Assembly: GCA_052327205.1 (NCBI GenBank)
Contig: CM126212.1
Coordinates: 7,874,001 to 7,938,000, forward strand
Direction of reading: 5' to 3'
Source: Somniosus microcephalus
Taxonomy: Eukaryota
Length of the DNA stretch: 64,000 nucleotides
Part shown: positions 34,795-58,340 of the stretch, piece by piece
Position numbering within the stretch: the first letter of the stretch is position 1
How the letters are laid out: every line of letters starts with the position of its first letter
The notes under the pieces: generated by a model
The model's input: the letters and a program-made list of their open reading frames with translations, nothing else
The model's database searches: none
What the model was told of the DNA's origin: nothing
Translations under genes and position numbers: made by a program

Positions 34795-35690
34795 ACTGAA
34801 GTCAGTGGGAATTGGGAGGATGGGGGGGCGGAATTCTCCACTGGTTGGAGTCATACCTAGCACAAAGGAAGATGGTTGTGGTGGTTGGAGGTCAATCATC
34901 ACAGCCCCATGACGTCGCTGCAGGAGTTGCTTGGGGCAGTGTCCTTGGCTCAACCATCTTCAGCTGCTTCATCCCCTCCATCATAAGGTCAGAAGTGGGG
35001 ATGTTCAATGTCATTCGCAACTCCTCAGATAATGAAGCAGTCCATGCCCGCATGCAGCAAGACCTGGATGACATTCAGGCTTGGCCTGATAAGTGCCAGG
35101 TTACCATCAATATCCTGGGGGTCACCATTGACCAGAAACTTAACTGGACCAGCCACATAAATACTGTGGCAACAAGAGCAGGTCAGAGGCTGGGTATTCT
35201 GCAGAGAGTGCAGCTCCAGCAACACTCCATAAGCTCGACATCATCCAAGTCAAATCAGCTCGCTTGATTGGCACCTCATCCACCACCTTAAACATTCACT
35301 CCCTCCACCACCGGCGTACCGTGGCTGCAGTGTGTACCACCTACAAGATGCACTACAGCAACTCGCCAAGGCTTCTTCGGCAGCACCTCCCAAACCCGCG
35401 ACCTCTTCCACCTAGAAGGACAAGGGCAGCAGGCGCATGGGAACACCACCACCTCCAAGTTCCCTTCCAAGCCACACACCATCTTGACTTGGAAGTATAT
35501 TGCCGTCCCTTCATCGTTGCTGGGTCTAAATCCTGGAACTCACTCCCTAACAGCACTGTGGGAGTACCATCACCACACGGACTGCAGTGGTTCAAGAAGG
35601 CGGCTCACCACCACCTTCTCAAGGGCAATTAGGGATGGCCAATAAATGCTGGCCTTGCCAGCGATGCCCACATCCCATAAATGAATAATT
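34795..35690 (+). mobile_element. CR1-clade LINE (second family), internally deleted
   Basis: RT-region motifs WLESYLAQRKMVVVVGGQSS...GSVLG; 3' end AAGGGCAATTAGGGATGG...AATAAATGCTGG. Confidence 0.85.
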
Positions 35691-39000: not shown

Positions 39001-39229
39001 GACACTAACGTCTTTTAGTGAAGGAAATCTGCCATTGTTACTAAATCTGGCTTGTGTGTGACTCCAGTCCCACGTGGTTGACTGGAATCACGCAACTCAG
39101 TTGCTTCAAACCACTCAAGAAGGCCCACCACTGTCTTCTCAGGGCAGCTTAGGATGGGCAATAAATGCTGGCAACGTCCCCATTCCGAGAATGTCTCTTA
39201 ATGGTCTTGGTTTATTTTTATTCAGAGTG

Positions 39230-40425
39230 TATTCAGTGTTCAGTGCCATTCACAACTCCTCAGATAATGAAGCAGTCCATGCCCACATGCAACAGGACCT
39301 GGACGACGTTCAGGCTTGGGCTGATAAGTGGCAGGTAACATTCGCACCACAAGTGCCAGACAATGTCTCCAAATAGCGAGCGTCTAACCACCTCCCCATG
39401 GCATTACCATCGCCGAATCCCCTACCATCAATATCCTGGGGGTCACCATTGACCAGAAACTTAACTGGACTAGCCACATTAATACTGTGGCAACAAGAGC
39501 TGGTCAGAGGCTAGGTATTCTGTGGTGAATGGGGAGTCAGGAGGTGAGACGAAGTCTTTCCACCATCTGCAAGGTACAAGTAAGGAGTGTGATGGAATAC
39601 TCTCCACTTACCTGGATGAGTGCAGCTCCAACAACACTCAAGAAGCTCGACACCATCCAAGGCAAAGCAGCCCACTTGATTGGCACTCCATCCACCACCT
39701 TAAACATTCACTCCCTCCACCACCTGCGCACCATGGCTGCAGTGTGCACAGGAAACTTTGTGCTATCCGGCACTGACGGGACTGAGCTGTTGCCGTCCCA
39801 TCAAAACTGCCGGACAAACCAGCGCTAATGTTGAAACATACGGAGATTTTGAGCTCCGTATCTGGCAACAAACCCTGTTGCTTAGCAATAGCTTCTAAAC
39901 AGTCGGCCGTACCTTGCAAGCGTCTCTGTAGCTTAGCAACAGCTTCAACGAGACCTTGCAGAGCCTGACTGGTGGGGGAAAAAAAGCAACGAAAAGAAAA
40001 AGCAACGAAAAGAAAAAAAACCTAACGAAACGGCTCCTGATTTTTGCCGGTGGCTCGAGCATTCCGGACAGTTAATCTCTGGATAAACCAAAGTTTCCTG
40101 TACCATCTACAAGATGCACTGCAGCAACTCGCCAAGGCTTCTTCGGCAGCACCTCCCAAACCCGCGACCTCTTCCACCTAGCAGGACAAGGGCAGCAGGC
40201 GCATGGGAACACCACCACCTCCAAGTTCCCCTCCAAGTCACACACCATCTTGACTTAGAAATATATTGCTTAAATTTTATCGTCGCTGGGTCAAAATCCT
40301 GGAACTCCCTCCCTAACAACACTGAGAGTACCTTCACCACACAGACTGCAGTGGTTCAAGAAAGAGGCTCACCACCACCTTCTCAAGGGCAATTAGGCCT
40401 TGCCAGTGACACCCACATCCCATAA
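39230..40425 (+). mobile_element. CR1-clade LINE (second family) split by a DNA transposon
   Basis: Matches 34990-35690 and the reverse complement of 53005-53900; GCAGTGTG|TACCATCTACAAG is interrupted. Confidence 0.85.
39749..40100. mobile_element. Tc1/mariner (Tigger/pogo-like) non-autonomous DNA transposon / MITE
   Basis: Perfect 12-bp TIRs CAGGAAACTTTG / CAAAGTTTCCTG with further TATCC similarity; flanked by CA (39747-39748) and TA (40101-40102) at a TA of the host LINE. Confidence 0.75.
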
Positions 40426-41354
40426 ACAAATTTAAAAAAAGTATTGATTAAAACAAGAACAAGAGGGATTGGAGGGGAGAGAAGAATTGTGCCTCAAACG
40501 ACAAATTGTTGCTTTTAACCCTTTCAGGAGTGAGGGGTGCTGGAAGAGCATCACCAGATATGATAACAGTATTCAAGTTTTAACTTGTTAATTTAATTTT
40601 CAACTAAAAGGGGGAATAAAAGGGTAGGAAACTTAAAATTAGATCTTAATGTGCTTGGAATTTTATGAGATGCAGACTTTCCAAATTGAGGCAAGTTGTT
40701 TTATTGTTTGATGCTGTAGAGGAAGCAATCCATGCTGAAAGTGTGCTTTCAGATAGTGTGAACCTACAGTTTCAAATACCAGAGACTTGTTCAGAATATT
40801 GAATAAATCAAGTAAGCTAAAAGTGATGACTCAGTTTGCGTCTTGTCATTTACTGTCCTTGTCCGAGGAGTGGTCGGTGCGGAGTATAAAAAGTGCAACT
40901 CGTTCCTTCGCACTGACAGCCCAGTTTGATGAGCACAAAAATTATTCACCAGAAAGATGATTTTTTACATTTCTTTTGAAGCCTTCTTTCTTTCCCTCTC
41001 TCCACCCCAAAAAGGAATAATAATCAGACTTTTGTTTCTTGCAGTCGTTAGTGTGTTGCACTCCTCAGTTATTTGTATTATTTCTGTCTTTGTATAGGCA
41101 TCACAGTGAATGGCTGCTTTCTTCAATTAACAAATTGTTGAAATTAACTAGCTTTCTGATGTTTTGGGTTTTGTGTGTTTTCTTGTGTCCTCTTCCCCAG
41201 TCCCAGGTTATCAACAAGAGTTCAGGTGCCCTGCACAGAGAGGGAAAGGGGAAAGAGACTGGAAGATAAATGGAACTGTTAGGTGGAGAGCGGTCTTTTG
41301 AGGCCTGGGATCAGGTAGCTTGTCCCCCTTTTTGGGTGTAAAAAGTACATCTGG

Positions 41355-42180
41355 ATGCAGGGAGGAGGTCCAGCATCTCTTGAAGTGGTACACCGATAAC
41401 AACCTGGCCCTCAACATCAAGAAAACCAAAGAAATCATTGTGGACTTCAGGAAGTCTGAAGGCGGAAGTCACACCCCCATCCACATCCATGGGGCTGTGG
41501 TGGAAAGGGTGGACAGCTTTAAGTTCCTCGGCGTCCACATCACGGAAGTCCTCTCCTGGTCCCTCAATACCTTCTCTCTGGTGAAGAAGGCCCAGCAGCG
41601 CCTATATTTCCTAAGGAGGCTGAAGGGATGTAACCTGTCACCCCTGATCCTCTCTAACTTTTACCGCTGCACTATAGAGAGCATCCTGACAAACTGTATC
41701 ACAGTATGGTATGGCAGCTGTAGCTCCGATGACCAGAAAGCCCTGCAGCGGGTAGTCAAAACTGCCCAACGCATTACCGGCACCCGGCTACCGACCATAG
41801 AGCACATATACCAGAAACGCTGTTTACGGAGGTCACAGTCCATCATCAAAGACCCTACCCACCCCAGCCACAGTCTGTTCGCCCTCCTGCCATCTGGGAG
41901 ACGCTACAGATGCATTCGCACCCGAATGACCAGATTTAGGAACAGCTTCTTTCCCAGGGCTGTCATCCGACTGAACTCCACAAATAAACGCTAAAGCCTG
42001 CACATCTGCCAATGCACTTTATTAAGGTTATGTTTATGTTAATGTATTACAAGCCAAATGTATGTTGAATGTTTAAATGTCTTAATCTAAATGTACACTC
42101 TCTGGAGCCGCAAGCCTACATTTCGTTGTACTGCACTTGTGCACTAACAATGACAATAAAAGTTGATTTGATTTGATTTG
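41355..42180 (+). mobile_element. Rex1/Babar-clade LINE, 5'-truncated
   Basis: Uninterrupted ORF end NNLALNIKKTKEIIVDFRK...FKFLGVHI...KKAQQRLYFLRRLK...FYRCTIESILT...RFRNSFFPRA; tail AATAAAAG(TTGAT)n. Confidence 0.9.
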
Positions 42181-42471: not shown

Positions 42472-45407
42472 GTAAATACTTGATTTTAACCACAATATTT
42501 ATATCTTGATTCAAAAGGTTTTCTGCCATTTAAAAATGTCAGTCTTGTTTTTCAAGGAGTGATTTCTCATTGGTGCACCATGGGCTGTCCAGGGTCAAAC
42601 AGAACATCTGATTCAATTATTTTTTTCCCATTTGCTTTTTGTAAAAAAAAAAGTATAAATGAGATTCAAAAGAACAAAAAAAATCATGTCCATAAAATTT
42701 CACACTTTAAAAAAAAATCTTTAATGGGTTTTCCGCTCCCCGCTTGCATAGTATTCCTTCCATGGTTTGAGTTAGTCCAGCCACAAAGTACAAGCCATTT
42801 GCTGAATCAGAGTGATCCAATGTTGCAATCAAAGAAGTAGAAAGATAATACAGTTGTAACTTGGGTGCTGTGCGGAAGTCGTTCCCAAATGGCTTTGCAG
42901 TTACAGGTTTAAATCTTCATGTAAATTCAGCACTGAGTCATGGGCGGGATTAGAATGCATTTATGTGGTGAGGCACTGCATTGGCAACCTGGAAATGGTG
43001 AGTGGGTGGGGAGTGGAGAAATACTTGGGTTTAATGCCTTTATCGCAGTTTGTGAATAATGCCTGCTTTCACGTATGCTCTGATTTAACCTATCGAAAGC
43101 AACAGGAATCGTAAATGTCAACACGACTGATTACTTAAAATGGGAATAAAGTTCAGAACCGCAATTACAATTTGGACTTCTTCCTAATGGCTTTCTTGCA
43201 TTTGGATTCGATTCCTGTTTCCATGAGTAACCAAAGCATGTTTATTATTACCACGTATGGGCTAATACAGCCCAGGTTTAACAATTGCACCTGACTCGTG
43301 ATGAATTGCTTACCCGGAGAATGTGTGAGCTGGCCATCACATTTTGCTGTCACCTCAAAAGATAAAGAATGCGATATCAGCAGACGACTGCACACAGCAA
43401 ACACTTTTGTCAAGATTTATTTACAAATAAAAACAACAAATCGGCATGATACTTTTCAATGCAATACGTAATGGTGAATTAGAACCAGTTAATATACCCT
43501 ATTCCAGAAAACTGCTTCTTGTAGTCTCTTTGTAGGCAACACCTCCTGTGTATGAAACAACTTAGTTTTCTGTCTCCTATTTCCTTTGGGATGAGATTTT
43601 GCAAATGGAATGCGTGAGCTTCAAATGCTCATGTAGCTTGCGGGTGTTTCAGGCAGGATTGAAGAACATTGAAAGCTAAATATATATTGTACCCTTTCTG
43701 TGGTTTAAATACAAGGCAACAGACACTGGCGAATAAAGGCGCAGTACATGAGAATGGTAACATGGAAAGTTGAATGCAGACTGGATCACAAGTACCTGGT
43801 AAAGCCTGACCATCAGCTTGCTCCGAGTCTGAAGCCAAGCAAGCACCTTTCACTTCACTAAATTCCAGACACTTAAACATTGGACAGTAAACTGAAAGTT
43901 ACACTTAAGACTGCATTTGTTAGCTATCAGAGCCCTTGTCTCAATTGATTTTTGAGTAGCGGGCATTGTTTAATTACATGCAGACTATCAGTCTCCTGTC
44001 TTCAGAACCTTAGTGAAGAGAGAGCAGCCTCCATATTAAACTCTGGATTATGTTTTTAAAAAAATGAAATAAAGACAAATTCCCATTGTGACACATTTTC
44101 AAACCGAGGCAGTGAATATACCAATTGAGACTGAATTATCAAATGAAGTGCTTGATTTGCATCCACCATTTTGAAAAGCTGATGTTTCAATTGGTGGATA
44201 TGTATTTAGTCTATTCCATTCTGTTGAAACATGCATTTCAGTGACCCAAACCCATAGTGATTTACATGTTTATATTACTACGTGTAAATGAACACGCCCT
44301 AGTTTACATCAAGGTGCTGAGGAAGCTGTGCCAGTCTCACAGCATTTCTGTTTGTAGCTGCAGAAGGTGGAATAGATTTATATGCTAAAATTGTGCTGAT
44401 CGCAGATAGTTGTAGGAGAGCTCGTGAAGATACTGGCTTACTTGTTACGAATTGGACTTTTATTGTGGGTTGTGCAGATTGACTATATAACATACAGGAA
44501 CTGCATGTAAGCTCATTTTAGACGGTGTGATCAAATTCATTTTCCTTTTTTTTAAATTTTGTTTAATAAATTTGATTTGCAAAAATATCATTTTTTGTCA
44601 CATTTATTTGTGCTTGTCATTCTCTGTTTTGAGATTCATTTCATCTTTTGAGAGTTTATGCACTTCACACGAGGCCAGGTTTTTACAATATTTTGTATAG
44701 TTTGCTAAACGTTTATTTCATGGTGCGGTTAATCGCGACCACCTCAATGGTAATCTGCAGAAATGCTTTTCAGGAAAATAATCCTGTTCACTGCAAGCTA
44801 AGAAACTTTTAGCTTCTGTCGACCAGACGCCCTTTCCGATGGCTTCTCCTTCTGTAGCTACTTTATTTTATTTAATGCCTCTTGTGTGTTTTTCATTTTC
44901 TGTAAGATCTACTTTGTCGCTCCCTCCTCCCTGAAGTGATGCTGTGCTCTGCTGCATAAGGGGAGCTTGGTGTCTGTTCTTTGCCAAACCATTTTTTGGA
45001 CCCAGTGACTCGCTGAACGATGAGAACGCTTTGTCGTCTGACTTGGCTGCGGATGAATATTTTGAGTTATTTTTCATGCTTCCACCCAGGGAATGATCTA
45101 GTTCCCATTCCCCCAGGTTGTTCCAGTGAGTCATTGTGGGGGAAGAACTCGACTCCCCAACCTTGGAAGCCGGAAACTTCATTCTGTTCATCCGTTCTTG
45201 GGTTTCCTGGAATCCTAGAAATTGGAGCACACAAGGCGGCCATTCAGCCTGTCGCCCCTGTGCCATTGCTTGCCCTTCAGCGGCAGCTGTCCCTTCCAAT
45301 CCAATTTGTCTTCCCTTTCCTTGTATCCTTTTATATTTTCTCTAAATATTTATCCAGTTTCCTTTTTAAATTACGTATTTGCCACTGTCTCGATGTGGGA
45401 TGCTTAG

Positions 45408-45664
45408 TGTTAAGTATGTGTATTGTATTGAACAATTAACACAAAGACTTAAACGTATAACTCAAACAGGTCTTTACTGGTTGGAGGTAGGGACTGCACG
45501 TAGGTCTTTACTTCATGCCCACAGGCGGGAACTGAGGGGAGATCAGTACCCACCGTACTATTTATACCCCTATGGCCAGGAATGGTACTGCGTATCACTA
45601 CGCCCTACAAGTAGTGCAGTCCTGTCCATAGGTTCAAAGTAGCACACATATTACATACACAACA
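45408..45664 (-). repeat. 3' LTR (257 bp)
   Basis: TGTTAAGT...ACACAACA; differs from the other LTR by 3 substitutions and one 5-bp indel by eye. Confidence 0.95.
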
Positions 45665-45677
45665 TTCCTCCCTTCTT
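45665..45677 (-). other. Polypurine tract AAGAAGGGAGGAA
   Basis: All-purine run immediately upstream of the 3' LTR on the element strand. Confidence 0.9.
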
Positions 45678-45980
45678 AGCTTTACAGTCATCTCCCCATT
45701 TAACATAACGTAATAACATATATACATATATAACTTCAGGTTTACATAACAGAATAACATAGATACATAGATAACTTCATGTCAAAACAGATCACAGATT
45801 CAGTCTCTGCGGAAAACAGTTCACAGATTCAATCTCTGTGGTGTAGTCGGTTCACGTTGCTGGAGTGACTCATTCAATAGTCCTTCCATGGATTTAACAG
45901 TTTGAACTTCCGAACTGAATTGGCTCCGTTCGGAGGGACCACGTGTGTGATCTGGTAGAGGTAATAATGGTTCAGATGGG

Positions 45981-47327
45981 TCATCTTCTGTTTCGACTTT
46001 TCCTTTTCTGCTTCTTGGAGACTCTCTGGGCTCCACTGTCAGCTGCCAGCTGCATGCGCAGTTCCTCCTTCTCTTCCTCCTTTTTCTGTAGTAGAGCCAC
46101 CTTCTCCCGATGTTCCGTAGACTTTCGGTGCTCCTCCATGATTTCTGTATGGTGGGAGTCGAAGTTACAAGTTGGGCAGGACAGGACATAGTAATATTCG
46201 GTGTCGTCCTGATCTAGGCCAGCGAGAGGGTCTTCTATTTCCTCCATACCCAGCTGGGCGTTAGCCAGCTTTTGTTCCAAGTCCAGACATCTTTCCTGAA
46301 GAGACTTCTTCATGCGTACCTCTTCATCCAGCTTTTTCTGGGCTTTCAGCAAGTCGTTTACTAATGACCTCATTTGAGATTTTACTACTTCAACTTCTTT
46401 TGGAGATTGATTGATCGGACTATTCAATCCCTCTACCGGAGCAGCTGTTTCAGCGGTCTGTTGTTCTACGTTGACGTGAGTCAGCGTACTTTTGGCATCC
46501 AAGGGCTGCTCTGTTGCAGTCATCTCAGTCTGTGTTGCCACCTCAGCTCTTCCAATAACCTTTGAGAGCTCCGAACCCCTTTCGTTTGAATATTGAAGTT
46601 CGTGTTCAAGTTTTTCCCATTTCAGAGTCCTGTCCTTCAGCATATGCAGGAGTTGGCTGACCGTTAACTCCTCTGACATCAGACGTTTTGTGTGCTCCTG
46701 CTCCATTTTCTCCATCAGCTGCTTCTGTTGTCTTTCCAGATTCTCCAACTCTATATCAAAGAACTCTTTCGTTGCATTCAACTCTTGCTCAAAACGGCGA
46801 AGCATTTGTTCTAATTGCTGTTGTAGTTTGAAATGGAGTTGAGTTCGAGCCCGGTGTCCCTCAGAAATGGGCACATCAGTAGACTTGCCAGACTCAGAAT
46901 CCACAGTTAAACTATGTTGTTGTTGCTCAGTGGAATTCTGTGCTGAAACTTTGTCTTTTGCACCTGAGTTGGGCTTACCATCATCCGTTCCAGAGTCTGG
47001 GCCGACTATCTTCACCGAGTTCTCACTCGTTATTGTTTGTAGGAAATGCCAGTCCATATTCATTTTCCTAATCCACTCCCGTCCTAGTAGTGGAGGACCT
47101 CCTTCAGATATCACATATAAGTCCATTATTTGACTGTCTTCGCCCTTGTGGACCACTGCAACCTCTATTTTCCCGATGGGGTACACTCTTTGCCCCGTGT
47201 ATGTTTTCAATATAATCCCCGTATCCTGTAGGGGAATATGTTGGAATAACTTTCCGTAATCTTTTTTATTTATGACCGTCAATGCCGATCCAGTGTCCAA
47301 TTCCAGTTTTACTTGGACTCCTTCTAT
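45981..47327 (-). CDS. Retropepsin-like protease fused to STK10/SLK-like coiled coil, optineurin-like coiled coil, matrin-type C2H2 finger and basic tail
   Basis: Open frame [19 protein letters not shown]...[11 protein letters not shown], then [41 protein letters not shown]...EVATQTE...[13 protein letters not shown]-x12-H-x5-[12 protein letters not shown]. Confidence 0.85.
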
Positions 47328-48197
47328 CTAAAGAGTGACCCAAATTGTCTGGAGGTCTGCACCCTTACCAGCGTTGAGTACTCTTAAGCTAGCCAGTTCA
47401 TTACAGCTTAAGCTAGCCAGTTCATTACTGCTAGCGTCTGAATCGGACTCCTGTTCGGCCACCTTGTGTACCTTTGCGTATTTTCCTTGCGGTGACTTCT
47501 TGTTGCTGGTCTTCTTCCCTGACCTGCAGACTCTAGCTATGTGTCCAAGCCTACCACAAGTTCTACATTCTTGGTTTTTAAACCAACACTGGTTCTGATC
47601 ATGCGTTGTCTTTCCACAACGATAACATTTGCCAGAACTCTCACCCAATTTGTGTGCACTGAGCTCCGGTGACCGTAGCTGCATTACTGCCGTGCCTCTC
47701 GCTGCGGCTTCGTGTGCTGCCGCCATAGTGACCGCCTTCTCAAGCGTCAGCTCATTCTCCTCGAGCAGTCGCTTTTGTGTATCCTGTTTAAATAAACCAC
47801 ACACAAATTTGTCTCGTAGTGCATCTGTCAGTCCCGTTCCAAACTGGCAATATTTCGCTAATTTACGCAATTCCAGCAAATATTCAGCATTGCTTTCATG
47901 CTGCAGCTGCCTTCTGTCGTAAAATTTAAATCGTTCCGCTAGCATCAGCGGCGTGGGGTTTAGATGATCTTTCAGGACAGTAACAATCTCATCGAACGTC
48001 TTATCCGCCGGTTCATCTGGTGATAACGGGTGTTTCAATTGCCCGTATGTCTTCGCACCCATTAAATTTAATAATGTTACAGCTTTATCTTGGTCACGAA
48101 TTTTATTGGCCTTACAAAAATTTATTACTCTTTCAACATATATGGCCCAATCTTCGAGGTCACTATCAAAGGTGCTAATATTCCCGTGTTTAGGCAT
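47328..48197 (-). CDS. Gypsy-type Gag (289 aa) with two zinc knuckles
   Basis: EDWAIYVER...LRDKFVCGL...LTLEKA capsid-like region; CYRCGKTTHDQNQC and CRTCGRLGHIARVC; same frame as the protease, separated by one TAG. Confidence 0.92.
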   Translation of the reverse strand: MPKHGNISTFDSDLEDWAIYVERVINFCKANKIRDQDKAVTLLNLMGAKTYGQLKHPLSPDEPADKTFDEIVTVLKDHLNPTPLMLAERFKFYDRRQLQHESNAEYLLELRKLAKYCQFGTGLTDALRDKFVCGLFKQDTQKRLLEENELTLEKAVTMAAAHEAAARGTAVMQLRSPELSAHKLGESSGKCYRCGKTTHDQNQCWFKNQECRTCGRLGHIARVCRSGKKTSNKKSPQGKYAKVHKVAEQESDSDASSNELASLSCNELASLRVLNAGKGADLQTIWVTL

Positions 48198-48781
48198 TGT
48201 CGATTTGCAATTTCTCAGATTTTATTTTCTTTACTTGTTAGCAAAGATGGCGGCTTCCCGCTCTTGCCGTCGTCCTCCGCCCACAAAATGGCGGTTTTCC
48301 CGCGCTTGGCGGTCTTCACCCGTCCCCCGACGCCGTCTCCCTTCAGCCCCCGAGTGCGGCCCTTATCTTCGCCGCGATCGCCCGAGTGCGGCCCTTATCA
48401 GCGGATGCGATCGCTGGATCGCGAAGTGGCTCCTGACCGAAGCGGCTCTCGGCCCTTATCTTCTGTGCGATCGATAGCCCGCGCTGTGCACCGCGGCTCT
48501 CGCACCTTGAGCTTCTGCAGCCGCCGCGCCTTTCAGTCCGAGTGCGGCCCTTTATCTTTGGTCCCGATCGCTGGCCCTGTCTTTGCAGCCAACGCTGCTC
48601 GGCTTACCCACGAGGTTATGGAGGCTTCAGGGTCCTAATGCCTGTCGCTTCCAGTCGCTGGAAGCTGTCAGGATTTCTCCTGCCCTTCAGTTTTGAGTGG
48701 GGTGTTGAGGATTGAAACCTCTCCAACGTCCTGTCTTTGGACGAAGCCGCCGTGGAATAACTGCCGCAGGGTTCGAACCGA

Positions 48782-48791
48782 CTCGTCGCCA
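48782..48791 (-). other. Primer-binding site TGGCGACGAG (tRNA-Ser(GCU)-type)
   Basis: 1 nt after the 5' LTR; complementary to the recalled 3' end CUCGUCG-CCA of vertebrate tRNA-Ser(GCU). Confidence 0.8.
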
Positions 48792-48792
48792 G

Positions 48793-49044
48793 TGTTAAGT
48801 ATGTGTATTGTATTGAACAATTAACACAAAGACTTAAACGTATAACTCAAACAGGTCTTTACTGGTTGGAGGTAGGGACTGCACGTAGGTCTTCATGCCC
48901 ACAGGCGGGAACTGAGGGGAGATCAGTACCCACAGTACTATTTATACCCCTATGGCCAGGAGTGGTACTGCATATCACTACGCCCTACAAGTAGTGCAGT
49001 CCTGTCCATAGGTTCAAAGTAGCACACATATTACATACACAACA
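48793..49044 (-). repeat. 5' LTR (252 bp) with TATA box and AGTAAA poly(A)-like signal
   Basis: Direct repeat of 45408-45664; TATAAATA on the minus strand at 48939-48946. Confidence 0.95.
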
Positions 49045-49599
49045 CTTAGGGATAAAGAATTCAAATTAAGAATTTTTTTCACCGGTTTTCTTAACTTCTC
49101 TGTTCATTCTCCCAGTAATAATTCTGACTGGATGCCCCCCTTTTGCCTTCATTAAAGCCACTGTCGTGTTGCAGCAAAATAGATAATGTGAGCCCCATTT
49201 CAAACTCTTTGAAATGGCAAGCAGGCAACTTGCTCTGAGCCCAGACAATTCTGATCTCTAGTTAGCTACAAAGTGATGCACAAGCGTGACCCTGGAGGAA
49301 CACTTTGTGCACTTCTGCTGACATGAGGTACTTGCTTTGTGAGTAACCATAAACTCTGACTTCCGTCCTTTCACTGTGCCATCGCATGTTGGTACCTCCG
49401 TGCCCTGTACATTTACTGTGGCTTAGCTGGAAGAGTAATATTTGTAAAAGATTTAATAGATCCATTCCCTGTGGTGTTTCTGCAAAATCATGTTGAAGCA
49501 CATTACATTTCTTTGCGAGTTCATAGTTAGATTTTTGAAACACAATTGGAGCAAGAAAGACTTGAATTAAAACAGTGTCTTCTGTTTCTTAAACCCCCT

Positions 49600-53004: not shown

Positions 53005-54460
53005 TTTTAAAATTCATTGATGGGATGTGGGCGTCGCTGGCTGGCTAGGCCTGCATTTAGTGCCCATCCCTAATTGCCCTTGAGAAAATGGTGGTGAGCC
53101 GCTTTCTTGACCCGCTGCAGTCCATATGGTGTCGGTACACCCACAATGCTGTTAGGAAGGGAGTTCCAGGATTTTGGCCCAGCGACAGTGAAGCAACGGC
53201 GATACAGGTCCAAGTCAGGATGGTGTGTGGCTTGGAGGGGAACTTGTAGGCGGTGATGTTCCCATGCGTCTGCTGCCCTTGTCCTTCTAAGTGGTAGAGG
53301 TCGTGGGTTTGGAAGGTGCTGTTGAAGGAGCTTTGGCGAGTTGCTGCAGTGCATCTTGTAGATGGTACACAGTGCAGCCACGGTGCGCCGGTGGTGGAGG
53401 AAGTGAATGTTGAAGGTGGTGGATGGAGTGCCAATCAAGCGGGCTGCTTTATCCTAAATGGTGTCGAGCTTCTTGAGTGTTGTTGGAGCTGCACTCATCC
53501 AGGCAAGTGGAGAGTATTCCATCACACTCCTGACTTGTGCCTTGTAGATGGTGGAAAGGCATTGGGGAGTCAGGAGGTGAGGCACTCGCCGCAGAATTCC
53601 CAGCCTCTGACTTGCTCTTGTAGCCACAGTATTTGTATGGCTGGTCCAGTTCAGTTTCTGATCAATGGTAACCCCCCAGGATGTTGATAGTGGGGGATTC
53701 AGCGATGGTAATGCCATTGAATGTCAAGGGGAGATGGTTAGAGTCTCGCTTGTTGGAGATGATCATTGCCTGGCACTTGTGTGGTGCGAATGTTACTTGC
53801 CACTTGTCAGCCCAAGTCTGAATGTTGTCCAGGTCTTGCTGCATATGGACACGGACTGCGTCTGTGTTTGACGAGTCTCGAATGGTGCTGAACAGTGTGC
53901 AATCATCAGCGAACATCCCCACTTCTGACCTTATGATGGAGGGAAGGTCATTGATGAAACAGCTGATGATGGTTGGGCCTAGGACACTGCCCTGAGGAAC
54001 TCCTGCAGTGATGTCATGTGATTGAGATGAATGACCTCCAACAACCACAGCCAACTTCCTTTGTGCTAGGTATGATTCCAACCAATGGAGAGTTTTCCCC
54101 TTGATTTCCATTGACTTCAGTTTTGCTAGGGCTCCTTGATGCCACACTCGATCAAATGCTGCCTTGATGTCAAGGGCAGTCACTCTCGCCTCACCTCTGG
54201 AATTCAGCTCTTTTGTCCATGTTTGGACCAAGGCTGTAATGAGGTCAGGAGCTGAGTGGCCCTGGCGGAACCCAAACTGGGCATCAGTTACCAGGTTATT
54301 GCTGAGTAAGTGCCGCTTGATAGCGCTGTCGACGACACCTTCCGTCACTTTGCTGATGATTGAGAGTAGACTGATGGGACGGTAATTGGCCGGGTCGGAT
54401 TTGTCCTGCTTTTTGTAGACAGGACATACTTGGGCAATTTTCCACATTGCCGGGTAGATG
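53005..54460 (-). mobile_element. CR1-clade LINE (second family) with well-preserved RT region
   Basis: WKIAQVCPVYKK...NYRPISLL...QFGFR...ALDIKAAFDRV...GVPQGSVLGP...FADD; frameshifted downstream. Confidence 0.92.
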
Positions 54461-55649
54461 CCATATTTGGGGGTACCCCCTGTTATATTTCACAGCTCAA
54501 CCTATTGACCATTCTGGGTAGAGTGCAGTGGACCCCCAGGTGAGCCTGCCAAAAACACGCTGCTGTCTGTAAAAAAGGAGCATCACAATACTTTCAAAAA
54601 TGTCTACAACAGACAGTAAGTCCATTCCTTACAATATCATTCCAAAACATTGTTGATTAAGACACTGAATAGGATGAAGGACAGTGGACAACCTCGCCTC
54701 ACTCCTCTCTCATTTGATACGCGAGCTTGTTACACAGTTCGCTAGCCTTTTGGTAGTTGGCATCTAAAGCACTGTAGAACATCACAGTTACCTCAAACAC
54801 CCTTGAACTTTTTCTCTTGATGAGGATTTGAACTACTTTGATGCCCTTGGGTAAAAGTAACACTTTGGAAGACCCATCTTTGAGGAATTCCATGCACCAG
54901 GAAGGAAAATCCATGTAGTTGGCAGCATGGAAAGAATTTGGGGTTTTTCTGATCAATGAATTGCTTGGGAGTTCAGGAGACCATGGAGTTGAGCTGCAAA
55001 GAAGCTGAATAATACTTTTACTCAATCTGTGACTTAGACTGGAACAATGACGAGTGTTGTTGATGGGTTGATATTGGGATATAATGTTCCCTGTACTTGC
55101 TTAAAAAGTGCCTGTCCATAATGTATAATGTGTTTACTTGTACAGCTAAGTGGATGTAAATCACACAAGGCTTTCAAAAACACAACTTTCATGATTTAAG
55201 GAGTGCTGAGTTAAGCGGTTATTTATAGTTATTCACTTTGTGAGTTGAAGGCTGAAATAAATTCTGACCATGATGTACTTGAGCAGTGAACGGGTGAGAT
55301 GGGGGACACCTTTCAGGAAAGCAGTGGCGAGTTACCTACAAGCATGCAAAAACATCATTACGATATTATCTGTCAATGAACAATATAACTGCAATGCATA
55401 TACTACATAAGTTTACCTCCCAGTTACATACCGATGATTTGTACAAATAACCGCTTTTGGCGGGGTGGCTTAGGTTGGGGGGGGGAGTATTTTCCTAATA
55501 TTTAATTGTTGCCAATTTGCAAAGTTAGAAAGAGGAGGAGGCTGATGATAGGAAAATATTTGTGATGGGTGGATGTTAGTTTGGAGACTGTATCCATGAT
55601 TGGTAGTGGATGTGCTTTGCCGGACGTATCTGCAACATTGCCCTTTTAT

Positions 55650-56904: not shown

Positions 56905-58340
56905 TGTTCGCAGGATATGGCTGACGATGGCAAAGCCACAATTTTATTGCCTCGTGGCCCCGAGGAGGTGGTGGTGGGTCTTCTTGAACCGCTGTAGTCT
57001 TTGTGCTGATGGAGCTCCCATCGTGTTGCCAAGTAAGAAATTGAACGATTTTGATCCAGCATTGATGAAGGAAGGGCAGAATGTGTCCAGATCAGGATGG
57101 TAGAGAACTTGGAGGTAATGGTGTTCCCATGACATTGCTGCTCTTGCCTCCTCTGTGGAAGAGGTTGCAGGGCTGGAAAGTGCTGTTGATGTAAGCTGGG
57201 TGAGTTGCTGCAGTGTATCCTGTAGATCATGCATAATGCAGCCACAGTGCACTGGCGGTGAAGGGGTGATATTGAGGTAGCAATCAAGCAGACTGCACTG
57301 TTCTGTGTCGTTTTGAGCTTCTTGAGTATTGTTGCAGTTGCACCCAATTAGGTGAGCGGAGTATTCCATCACACTCGACTTTTTTTATTCATTCATGGGA
57401 TGTGGCCTAATTGCCCTTGAGAAGGTGGTGAGCTGCCTTCTTGAACCGCAGCAGTCAGTGTGGTGAAGGTACTCCAACAGTGCTGTTAGATAGGGAGTTC
57501 CAGGATTTTAACCTACCGATGAGGAAGGAATGGGGATATATTTCCAAGTCAGGATGGTGTATGACTTGGAGGGGAACTTGGAGGAGGTGGTGTTCCCATG
57601 TGCCTGCTCCCCTTGTATTTCCAGGTGATAGAGGTCATGGGTTTGGGAGGTGCTGTTGAAGAAGCCTCGAGTTGCTGCAGTGCCTCTTGAGTCTTGAAGA
57701 TGGCGGAGAGGTCAGGAGATGAGCCACTTCGAGGACCCAGCCTCTGCCCTGCTCTTGAAGCCATGTTGTTTATTTGGCTGGTCCAATTAAACTTCTAGTC
57801 AAGATGTTGATTGTAGGTCACTTGCAATGGTGGCGCCATTTAAGTTCAGTGGGAAGTGGATTTTTTTGTTGAAGGTTATTTCCTGACACTTGGGTGATGT
57901 GAATGTTACCTGTTACTTGTCAGTCGCAGTCTGAATGTTATCCTGGTCCTGCTGTAGGCTTGCATGGGCTCTTTCATTATTCGTGGAGTTGAGAATGGAG
58001 CTGAGAATTGGGCAATTGTCGGCCAACAGCCGCACTCATGACTTTGTGGTGGAGGGAAGGTCGTTGATGAAGCGGCTGAAGATGGTTGGGCCAAAGATGC
58101 TGCTCTGAAGCACACCTGCAGCAACGTCCTGCGGCTGTGATGATTTGCCTCTGCCAACCATGACCGTCTTCCTTTGTTAAGTATGACTCCAGCATTCGAG
58201 GGTAGTCCCTTTTGACTGCTGTTGACCTCAGTTTTGCTAGGGCTCCTCGGTGCCATATTTGGTCGAATGCTGCCTTGGTGTTGATGGCGGCTGCTGTCGC
58301 CTTTTTTGATATTAGGCTAGTCTCCATATCTGGATGATGC
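56905..58340 (-). mobile_element. Two adjacent decayed CR1-clade (second family) fragments
   Basis: Both ~56905-57375 and ~57380-58340 resemble 53005-54250. Confidence 0.75.

Follow-up and report, generated by a model that had tools for sequence, protein, structure and literature searches.

How does a segment resembling the coiled coil of optineurin (OPTN) come to lie within the open reading frame of a retrotransposon, and does it do anything for the element that carries it? The question is raised by a 64,000-nucleotide stretch of Somniosus microcephalus DNA (contig CM126212.1, positions 7,874,001 to 7,938,000; hereafter the window, to which all positions without a contig label refer). An earlier note, made from the letters alone, had placed such a segment at 46239-46676 and proposed that it was captured from spliced mRNA and might act as a decoy or trafficking aid. 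The minus-strand translation of this interval is indeed the peptide quoted there, and both BLASTP and a wider homologue search return optineurins; the OPTN piece does, however, begin four codons earlier, at 46688. Overlooked at the time were STK10-derived segments on either side of OPTN and a zinc-finger-like insert in the same ORF.

The region 46237-46688 is part of a 3.6-kb non-autonomous Gypsy/Ty3 (Metaviridae) element on the minus strand, which encodes Gag and protease (Table 1). The element measures 3.64 kb between LTR ends, compared with 5.1-5.7 kb in autonomous copies, and its LTRs are 252 nt (5') and 257 nt (3') long with TG...CA ends. The start of the putative primer-binding site, TGGCGACGA, is also found in the stage-0 and stage-1 elements described below. 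In the window family a single reading frame runs from gag through the aspartic protease into the cargo; the window copy is interrupted by an in-frame stop at 47328-47330, which is missing from most copies. The gag assignment comes from Pfam matches to zf-CCHC (E 0.001) and Retrotrans_gag (E 0.019), both below the curated cut-off, while the PKK domain scores 35.5 bits over a cut-off of 25 (ORF residues 168-218, E 1.3e-8). Neither frame piece of the window element gave a Pfam match to reverse transcriptase (RT), RNase H or integrase, and a PDB sequence search gave no matches.

Table 1. Features of the element, by position in the window
Feature	Position	Strand	Basis
5' LTR (TG...CA)	48793..49044	-	direct repeats, 98-100%; ends read from sequence
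Target-site duplication CTTAG, 5 bp	49045-49049 and 45403-45407		read from sequence
Putative primer-binding site, starting TGG, just inside 5' LTR	48778..48792	-	sequence
gag with retrotransposon-gag and CCHC knuckles; start codon ATG at 48197	47331..48197	-	Pfam, below cut-off
Aspartic protease (LDTGS)	47031..47327	-	Pfam gag-asp_proteas, E 0.012, below cut-off
Captured STK10 exon B, acidic linker, two pieces with in-frame 69-nt deletion	46858..47028	-	86-88% to host
Captured STK10 exons D-E, spliced, PKK coiled coil	46689..46862	-	Pfam PKK; 91-94% to host exons
Captured OPTN, four spliced exon pieces: helix, disordered spacer, helix	46237..46688	-	DNA and protein matches
EVATQTE, LC8-type TQT motif from host OPTN (putative)	46524..46544	-	sequence
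Zinc-finger-like insert: acidic patch, motif, helix, basic tail	45990..46230	-	motif in 39 of 40 copies
ORF stop	45983-45981	-	sequence
STK10 exon A 3' end and exon B 5' part, the post-back-splice half of the circle	45869..45989	-	86-92% to host
Integrase C-terminal tail remnant	45821..45868	-	frame ends ...PQRLNL, as in stage-1 copies
Polypurine tract	45665..45677	-	sequence
3' LTR	45408..45664	-	direct repeats

An exact 28-nt pattern across the STK10-OPTN joint places the size of the window family at no fewer than 3,691 copies in the 6.45-Gb genome (reversed control, 0). The initial candidate counts of 16,226, 32,758 and 23,841 are not copy numbers. Polymorphism was based on 40 of the 3,691, taken as consecutive pattern matches on C1; loci L001-L030, chosen by identity to the query, were left out of these counts. 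An open frame of at least 730 amino acids ending in the basic tail is present in 29 of the 40, LDTGS is kept in 39, and LTR pairs were found in 35, with 34 pairs at 98% identity or more and 7 at 100%. The family is young and recently amplified.

A homologue search with residues 155-448 of the element's frame (P0001) gave 21 matches among 2,090 candidates, 20 of them chondrichthyan optineurins (best E 5.8e-51) and one an STK10. By BLASTP, residues 214-364 align to residues 226-384 of OPTN P0004 with 114 of 159 positions identical (72%, E 8e-64). The host OPTN gene, located through its NEMO domain, lies at G000:C17:85884683-85890195. Four of its exons, matched at 92, 81, 87 and 89%, account for the 452-nt OPTN piece of the window element (46688-46578, 46580-46407, 46409-46291 and 46292-46237); the three introns between them are missing from the element exactly at the host GT-AG boundaries, and STK10 intron D-E is also lost in the window copy. 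Since the DNA matches four host exons with the introns removed, this is not a generic coiled-coil match. The exact loss of the introns, together with 9- and 7-nt microhomology at the original donor junctions, supports the capture from spliced mRNA that had been proposed, and we take it to be confirmed. The absence of an LIR and a UBAN from the segment is likewise borne out by alignment to the landmarks of P0004 (LIR at about 183-188; domains at 44-111, 497-590 and 641-666). While the element shares the 72% identity over this stretch with vertebrate optineurin (shark orthologues P0003-P0022), it differs in having no NEMO/TBK1-binding domain, LIR, CC2-LZ/UBAN or C-terminal zinc finger; it shows none of the features of an optineurin-type autophagy receptor or TBK1 adaptor and is not an optineurin gene.

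At the DNA level OPTN is flanked on either side by STK10 exons in the window element, the exon B pieces matching the host at G000:C8:167196962-167196723. A genome search with STK10 found a family, stage 1, whose cargo is 98-99% identical to the host exons. In the stage-1 copy L037 these run in the order B(3')-C-D-E-A-B(5'). The E-to-A joint consists of the last base of exon E and the first base of exon A, coinciding precisely with the GT donor and the AG acceptor, and the normal upstream exon shares only AG with it. Each exon occurs only once in the 100-kb host locus, no sequence from outside the circle is present in the L037 cargo, and the five exons total 1,245 nt, or 415 codons. The exact back-splice joint has 833 matches and thus at least 833 copies; the window copy does not contain the joint itself but retains the permuted exon order.

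In the LTRs, gag-PR and the 3' tail, stage 1 has 98% identity to an autonomous family, and its tail connects to the integrase end of this parent element. When the entry-site pattern was followed by any other base it gave 15 matches; of ten inspected, seven run into RT and the other three are stage-1 point variants. The parent element shares microhomology with STK10 exon B both where the circle was entered (11 nt) and where it was left (6 nt), and entry and exit fall at the same site of the circle. The same-site entry and exit and the exact back-splice joint show the cargo to be a single complete turn of a back-spliced STK10 circle, with RT-RNaseH-integrase replaced in frame by exactly one turn of five exons. 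The circle is deduced from element DNA and host exons, and the joint is also carried by element transcripts. Capture might be limited to one turn by RNase H, which would destroy the circle during copying; alternatively, same-site microhomology on both switches alone could fix this length. In the window copy the post-back-splice half of the circle is out of frame and nearly all beyond the ORF stop.

Several further observations were made on host STK10. A comparison of the 3.1-kb intron downstream with 12 kb of the 15.5-kb intron upstream revealed no inverted repeats. Intron C-D begins with GC rather than GT (G000:C8:167193683, L060). Two older, broken Gypsy relatives, about 66-69% identical to the lineage, lie within STK10 introns (G000:C8:167207500-167214000 and 167259500-167265500), one of them in the long intron directly upstream of the circle-forming exons. 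Elsewhere, an intron-less copy of five 3' STK10 exons, 98-100% identical to host and within LINE sequence (L033, G000:C3:354658271-354658945), is a young linear STK10 retrocopy fragment.

The intermediate between the STK10 circle and the window family, stage 2, was found by a search with full-length OPTN (14 loci fetched, six mapped in full). Its STK10 cargo carries an internal B-to-D deletion, and its OPTN consists of six spliced exons placed over the back-splice junction, with the 9 and 7 nt of microhomology at the ends. Five of these exons are 94-99% identical to host and one only 86-87%, because of a 21-nt deletion. The first exon follows the NEMO-domain exon, and the LIR (DDSFVEI) is included. 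Both families have the B-to-D deletion, the same 21 nt missing from OPTN and the same circle exit, which shows that the window family descends from stage 2. It has lost the LIR-bearing stretch, with 5-nt microhomology, as well as the distal OPTN coil, and the LIR is found in none of the 40 copies; the later deletions show microhomology of 4 and 5 nt. A direct switch of OPTN into the element at the KRL and MEE joints was considered and ruled out, as stage 2 shows both to be later deletions.

In gag-PR DNA the window family has 87-88% identity to another autonomous Gypsy family, compared with 76-77% to the first. This second family, a candidate helper, has 1,625 exact matches and PR-RT-RH-IN domains, all eight of the matches inspected run into RT, and it shares the polypurine tract and LTR ends with the window element; the Pfam order in L158, an autonomous relative, is PR-RT-RH-IN. 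Over the seven switch joints the microhomology is 11, 6, 9, 7, 4 and 5 nt at six, and just 2 nt at the seventh, where the protease of the window family passes into STK10 and the comparison is with the helper-like family. Because of this 2-nt joint, and because the LTRs of that family match those of the window element in part only, the true gag-PR donor or helper may be another family. A sister family of at least 1,174 copies (exact matches; L144-L149, G000:C1:7568829-7571858 and others) carries an added ankycorbin/ANKRD24 coiled coil between the STK10 and OPTN pieces, 74% identical to the Heptranchias orthologue (E 2.7e-76).

The order of the capture steps can be drawn from the shared deletions and the joints, without a rooted tree. 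An autonomous single-ORF Gypsy (stage 0) had its pol (RT-RNaseH-integrase) swapped in frame for the one-turn STK10 circle (stage 1), after which OPTN, as six spliced exons that included the LIR, was put in over the back-splice junction (stage 2). In the window family (stage 3) the LIR region and distal OPTN coil were deleted, a zinc-finger piece was gained and gag-PR was exchanged for that of another autonomous family, and in the sister family (stage 4) ANKRD24 was added. Each capture would represent microhomology-guided template switching during reverse transcription. An origin by repeated RNA-templated capture and trimming within a Gypsy lineage is secure on the evidence of the joints and intermediates. 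Copies with cargo are far more numerous than the stage-0 parent at the junction site they have in common, with 833 exact back-splice copies against 15 other continuations.

The zinc-finger piece carries a C-x2-C-x12-H-x5-H motif at 46178-46110, which recurs in the diverged ANKRD24 family; all four zinc ligands have been retained from one family to the other though the core of the finger has a dN of 0.37. The donor of the piece was not found by any of the searches made for it, which gave a best score of 0.87 with Atlas features, below the trusted range, none among 123 candidates in a word-indexed search of longer proteins, and for the junction pattern a single match, a one-base deletion variant only. 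HMMER over representatives gave three weak matches, to two zf-met proteins and one repeat protein. Across the 40 copies, shared variants in 45990-46238 comprise 39 nonsynonymous and 7 synonymous changes (ratio about 2), an excess that possibly reflects either diversifying selection or a subfamily artefact.

Whether the cargo serves the element was approached through selection. Between the window copy and three stage-2 copies OPTN has a dN/dS of 0.35-0.40 without and 0.46-0.53 with transition bias (p 0.003-0.04), on a branch with a dS of 0.16-0.22; nine segments were tested, and a transition bias of 2.5 takes two of the three confidence intervals up to 1.0. The constraint on OPTN in this lineage is therefore modest and model-dependent. 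The STK10 linker (0.56-0.77) and PKK (0.33-1.15) are not significant in the window lineage, and the out-of-frame STK10 remnant, read in the STK10 frame, gives 1.2-1.6. Compared with two autonomous copies, gag has a value of 0.26-0.32 and protease 0.40-0.48; this comparison was used as that with stage 2 mixes two autonomous families, and gag/PR singleton counts among the 40 copies, which look inflated by truncated or recombinant copies, were not used. In the ANKRD24 family the pattern is different, with OPTN near neutral (0.83, p 0.24; helix 1, 1.34) and values of 0.46 for the STK10 linker and 0.38 for PKK (p ~0.02). Shared indels inside the ORF all preserve the frame (24, 10+8, 39, 3, +30 and +9 nt), and the frame is under selection throughout. 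Some coiled-coil cargo is constrained in each lineage, and not the same one.

With a probability of roughly 0.55, we favour the view that the OPTN piece is a generic, replaceable helical or acidic tail in the place of Pol. All three identified cargoes, STK10, OPTN and ANKRD24, are coiled-coil or acidic regions. The element RNA would be translated as one Gag-PR-cargo polyprotein, packaged with the Gag-Pol of an autonomous relative and copied by its RT and integrase. Selection would then keep the tail well behaved and the frame open almost as far as the 3' LTR, and the tail could perhaps aid Gag-PR co-assembly or protease dimerisation without Pol. According to the accessible text of one study (PMC8537868), forced dimerisation at the C-terminus can activate a retroviral protease, and leucine zippers placed after the protease lowered particle output, so that forcing the protease to dimerise is no simple advantage.

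The same origin would also allow the OPTN piece to be a neutral passenger, in which case element length and an open frame would matter and the amino acids would not, the open frame sparing the RNA the nonsense-mediated decay that a long 3' UTR invites. A passenger would be expected to evolve near neutrally, as OPTN does in the ANKRD24 family, and to suffer the repeated large deletions seen in the cargo, and among the 40 copies shared OPTN variants (10 nonsynonymous, 8 synonymous) do not differ significantly from singletons (18 and 8; p 0.27). In-frame retrocopies may, moreover, be too young for decay, as the accessible text of Tan et al (2016, PMC5131818) allows. It is harder to reconcile a passenger with an OPTN dN/dS in the window lineage that is close to that of the protease while the out-of-frame control lies above 1, or with zinc ligands that outlast the divergence around them, and we consider it possible but doubtful.

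The TQT motif pointed out in the earlier note is present. The sequence xATQT occurs in seven of eight shark and ray OPTN orthologues, and the motif is inherited from host OPTN. Motifs of the TQT type are LC8 anchors. It is conceivable that OPTN acts here through its own properties, with LC8/dynein moving particles via EVATQTE or with pairing to host OPTN blunting autophagy/TBK1 signalling. V.TQT is kept in 40 of 40 window-family copies and in five stage-2 proteins, and helix 1 with EVATQ is the best kept stretch at the DNA level (91%) in the diverged ANKRD24 family, where, on the other hand, TQT has become TQI and helix 1 has the high dN/dS given above. In the predicted structure of the OPTN piece, helices at 10-60 and 96-149 enclose a low-confidence stretch (60-91), and the TQT, a putative LC8 site, would lie at a helix end bordering this stretch. 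Inheritance from the host would by itself account for the motif, and no paper linking LC8, TQT and optineurin was found in the literature covered. The deleted LIR, the missing TBK1- and ubiquitin-binding regions and the decay in the sister family weaken an OPTN-specific action, which we regard as unlikely; for the same reasons the decoy idea has lost ground and is the less likely reading, and the autophagy and TBK1 functions of OPTN would not be the route of action. The homodimer prediction for the OPTN piece scored 0.09, which speaks neither for nor against a dimer, and a fold search with the cargo model (pTM 0.24) gave no matches.

Expression of the element is high in both RNA runs. X23 contains 13,684 element reads in 16.65 million, with the first mate on the plus strand at about 10:1 and a peak over OPTN; X24 contains 12,786 in 14.4 million, near strand balance. 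The RNA in both is from organism B, which may not be the species of G000; runs labelled organisms A, B and C contain 60-74% of the element words. All 30 bins along the element are covered by RNA reads, and if the library is of the common type, the bias in X23 would be element-sense. A host-mRNA origin of the peak over OPTN was considered, but at 46398 and 46424 (two of six frequent variants compared with the host by eye) the reads carry a non-host base. These bases are found in about 70-80% of X23 reads, and their frequency shows that most reads over OPTN come from element subfamilies. The reads diverge at 46285 and 46680, and these loose ends point to more cargo subfamilies than the four examined.

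With expression at this level, the benefit of the cargo could be sought in the RNA, the host sequence camouflaging the element from small-RNA silencing or small RNAs from the element feeding back on OPTN and STK10. The excess of cargo copies over the stage-0 parent and the presence of two one-base insertions in the captured region of host OPTN might be read in this way. The synonymous sites have, however, diverged freely (dS ~0.2), wearing away the similarity to the host, and the conservation of the frame points to constraint at the protein level, which makes a benefit of this kind very improbable.

The insertions in host OPTN (G000:C17:85884780-85885400, L042) lie in A-runs of adjacent exons and are seen relative to stage-2 copies and other sharks; in the same gene TQTE is changed to TPTA. 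The assembly yielded a single OPTN locus and a single NEMO-like one. The insertions may represent an assembly error, the use of another splice donor or real decay.

It is established that LTR elements can mediate retroposition in metazoans, giving microsimilarity, chimeras of several genes and secondary spread (Tan et al, 2016, PMC5131818, accessible text), and the lost introns and microsimilarity at switch points that mark such retrocopies are found in the window element. As in those cases, part of an internal ORF is replaced by partial mRNA, several parental genes contribute to one chimera, the spread is secondary and non-autonomous, and the cargo is in sense and in frame; the median microsimilarity there of 6 bp compares with 4-11 nt at six of the seven shark joints. 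The cases described in that text are polymorphic or of few copies, whereas the shark junctions occur 833 to 3,691 times, the serial steps each survive as a family of their own, and gag-PR, which shares a single ORF with the cargo, remains under purifying selection. The shark element also has a back-spliced circle as cargo, and the word 'circ' occurs 0 times in the main text of PMC5131818. The same text describes maize Bs1, a non-autonomous LTR element with fragments of three host genes and one to five copies; its cargo is partly out of frame, while the shark lineage is vertebrate, very high-copy and serially remodelled.

A closer likeness for the circle is mouse circRFWD2, with 33 high-confidence circRNA-derived pseudogenes in LTR-rich flanks, the mechanism of which is termed mysterious in the accessible text of Dong et al (2016, PMC4897178). 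There too a non-colinear joint falls at exact splice sites, with LTR association and multiple copies. The circRFWD2 copies are pseudogenes, whereas the 415-codon shark circle is in frame with Gag-PR, its parent element, both switch points and one-turn length are visible, and the lineage has thousands of copies. The shark element is unusual in departing from known LTR-mediated gene capture in its scale, serial history and circRNA origin, and no description of the family was found in the literature covered, which included intronless shark duplicates (Repbase/Dfam and most subscription journals were outside this coverage).

How circRNAs are retrocopied is a question left open in the accessible text of PMC4897178, and the shark parent and switch sites suggest a testable mechanism of co-packaging, microhomology switching and RNase H-limited copying. 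The lineage may also be looked upon as vertebrate exon shuffling in progress, with three named host genes and one other source in frame behind Gag-protease and each capture step kept as a family whose young, transcribed copies number in the hundreds to thousands. This raises the question of whether selection favours captured host domains because the element gains from them. Extending the generic-tail reading, a view that is less probable than not would see in the lineage a domain collector founded by the capture of one turn of a circRNA, with the coiled-coil tails replacing Pol functionally through assembly, protease dimerisation or dynein recruitment; this might explain the excess over the stage-0 parent and have helped to shape the 6.4-Gb shark genome. 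The families carry a warning too, in that thousands of OPTN-, STK10- or ANKRD24-like matches in such a genome are transposon cargo rather than the expansion of a gene family.

The window also contains fragments of LINE-type reverse-transcriptase repeats in both orientations, at 34800-35660, 39060-40420, 41300-41994, 53040-54490 and 57100-58300, which we take to be CR1/L2-like.
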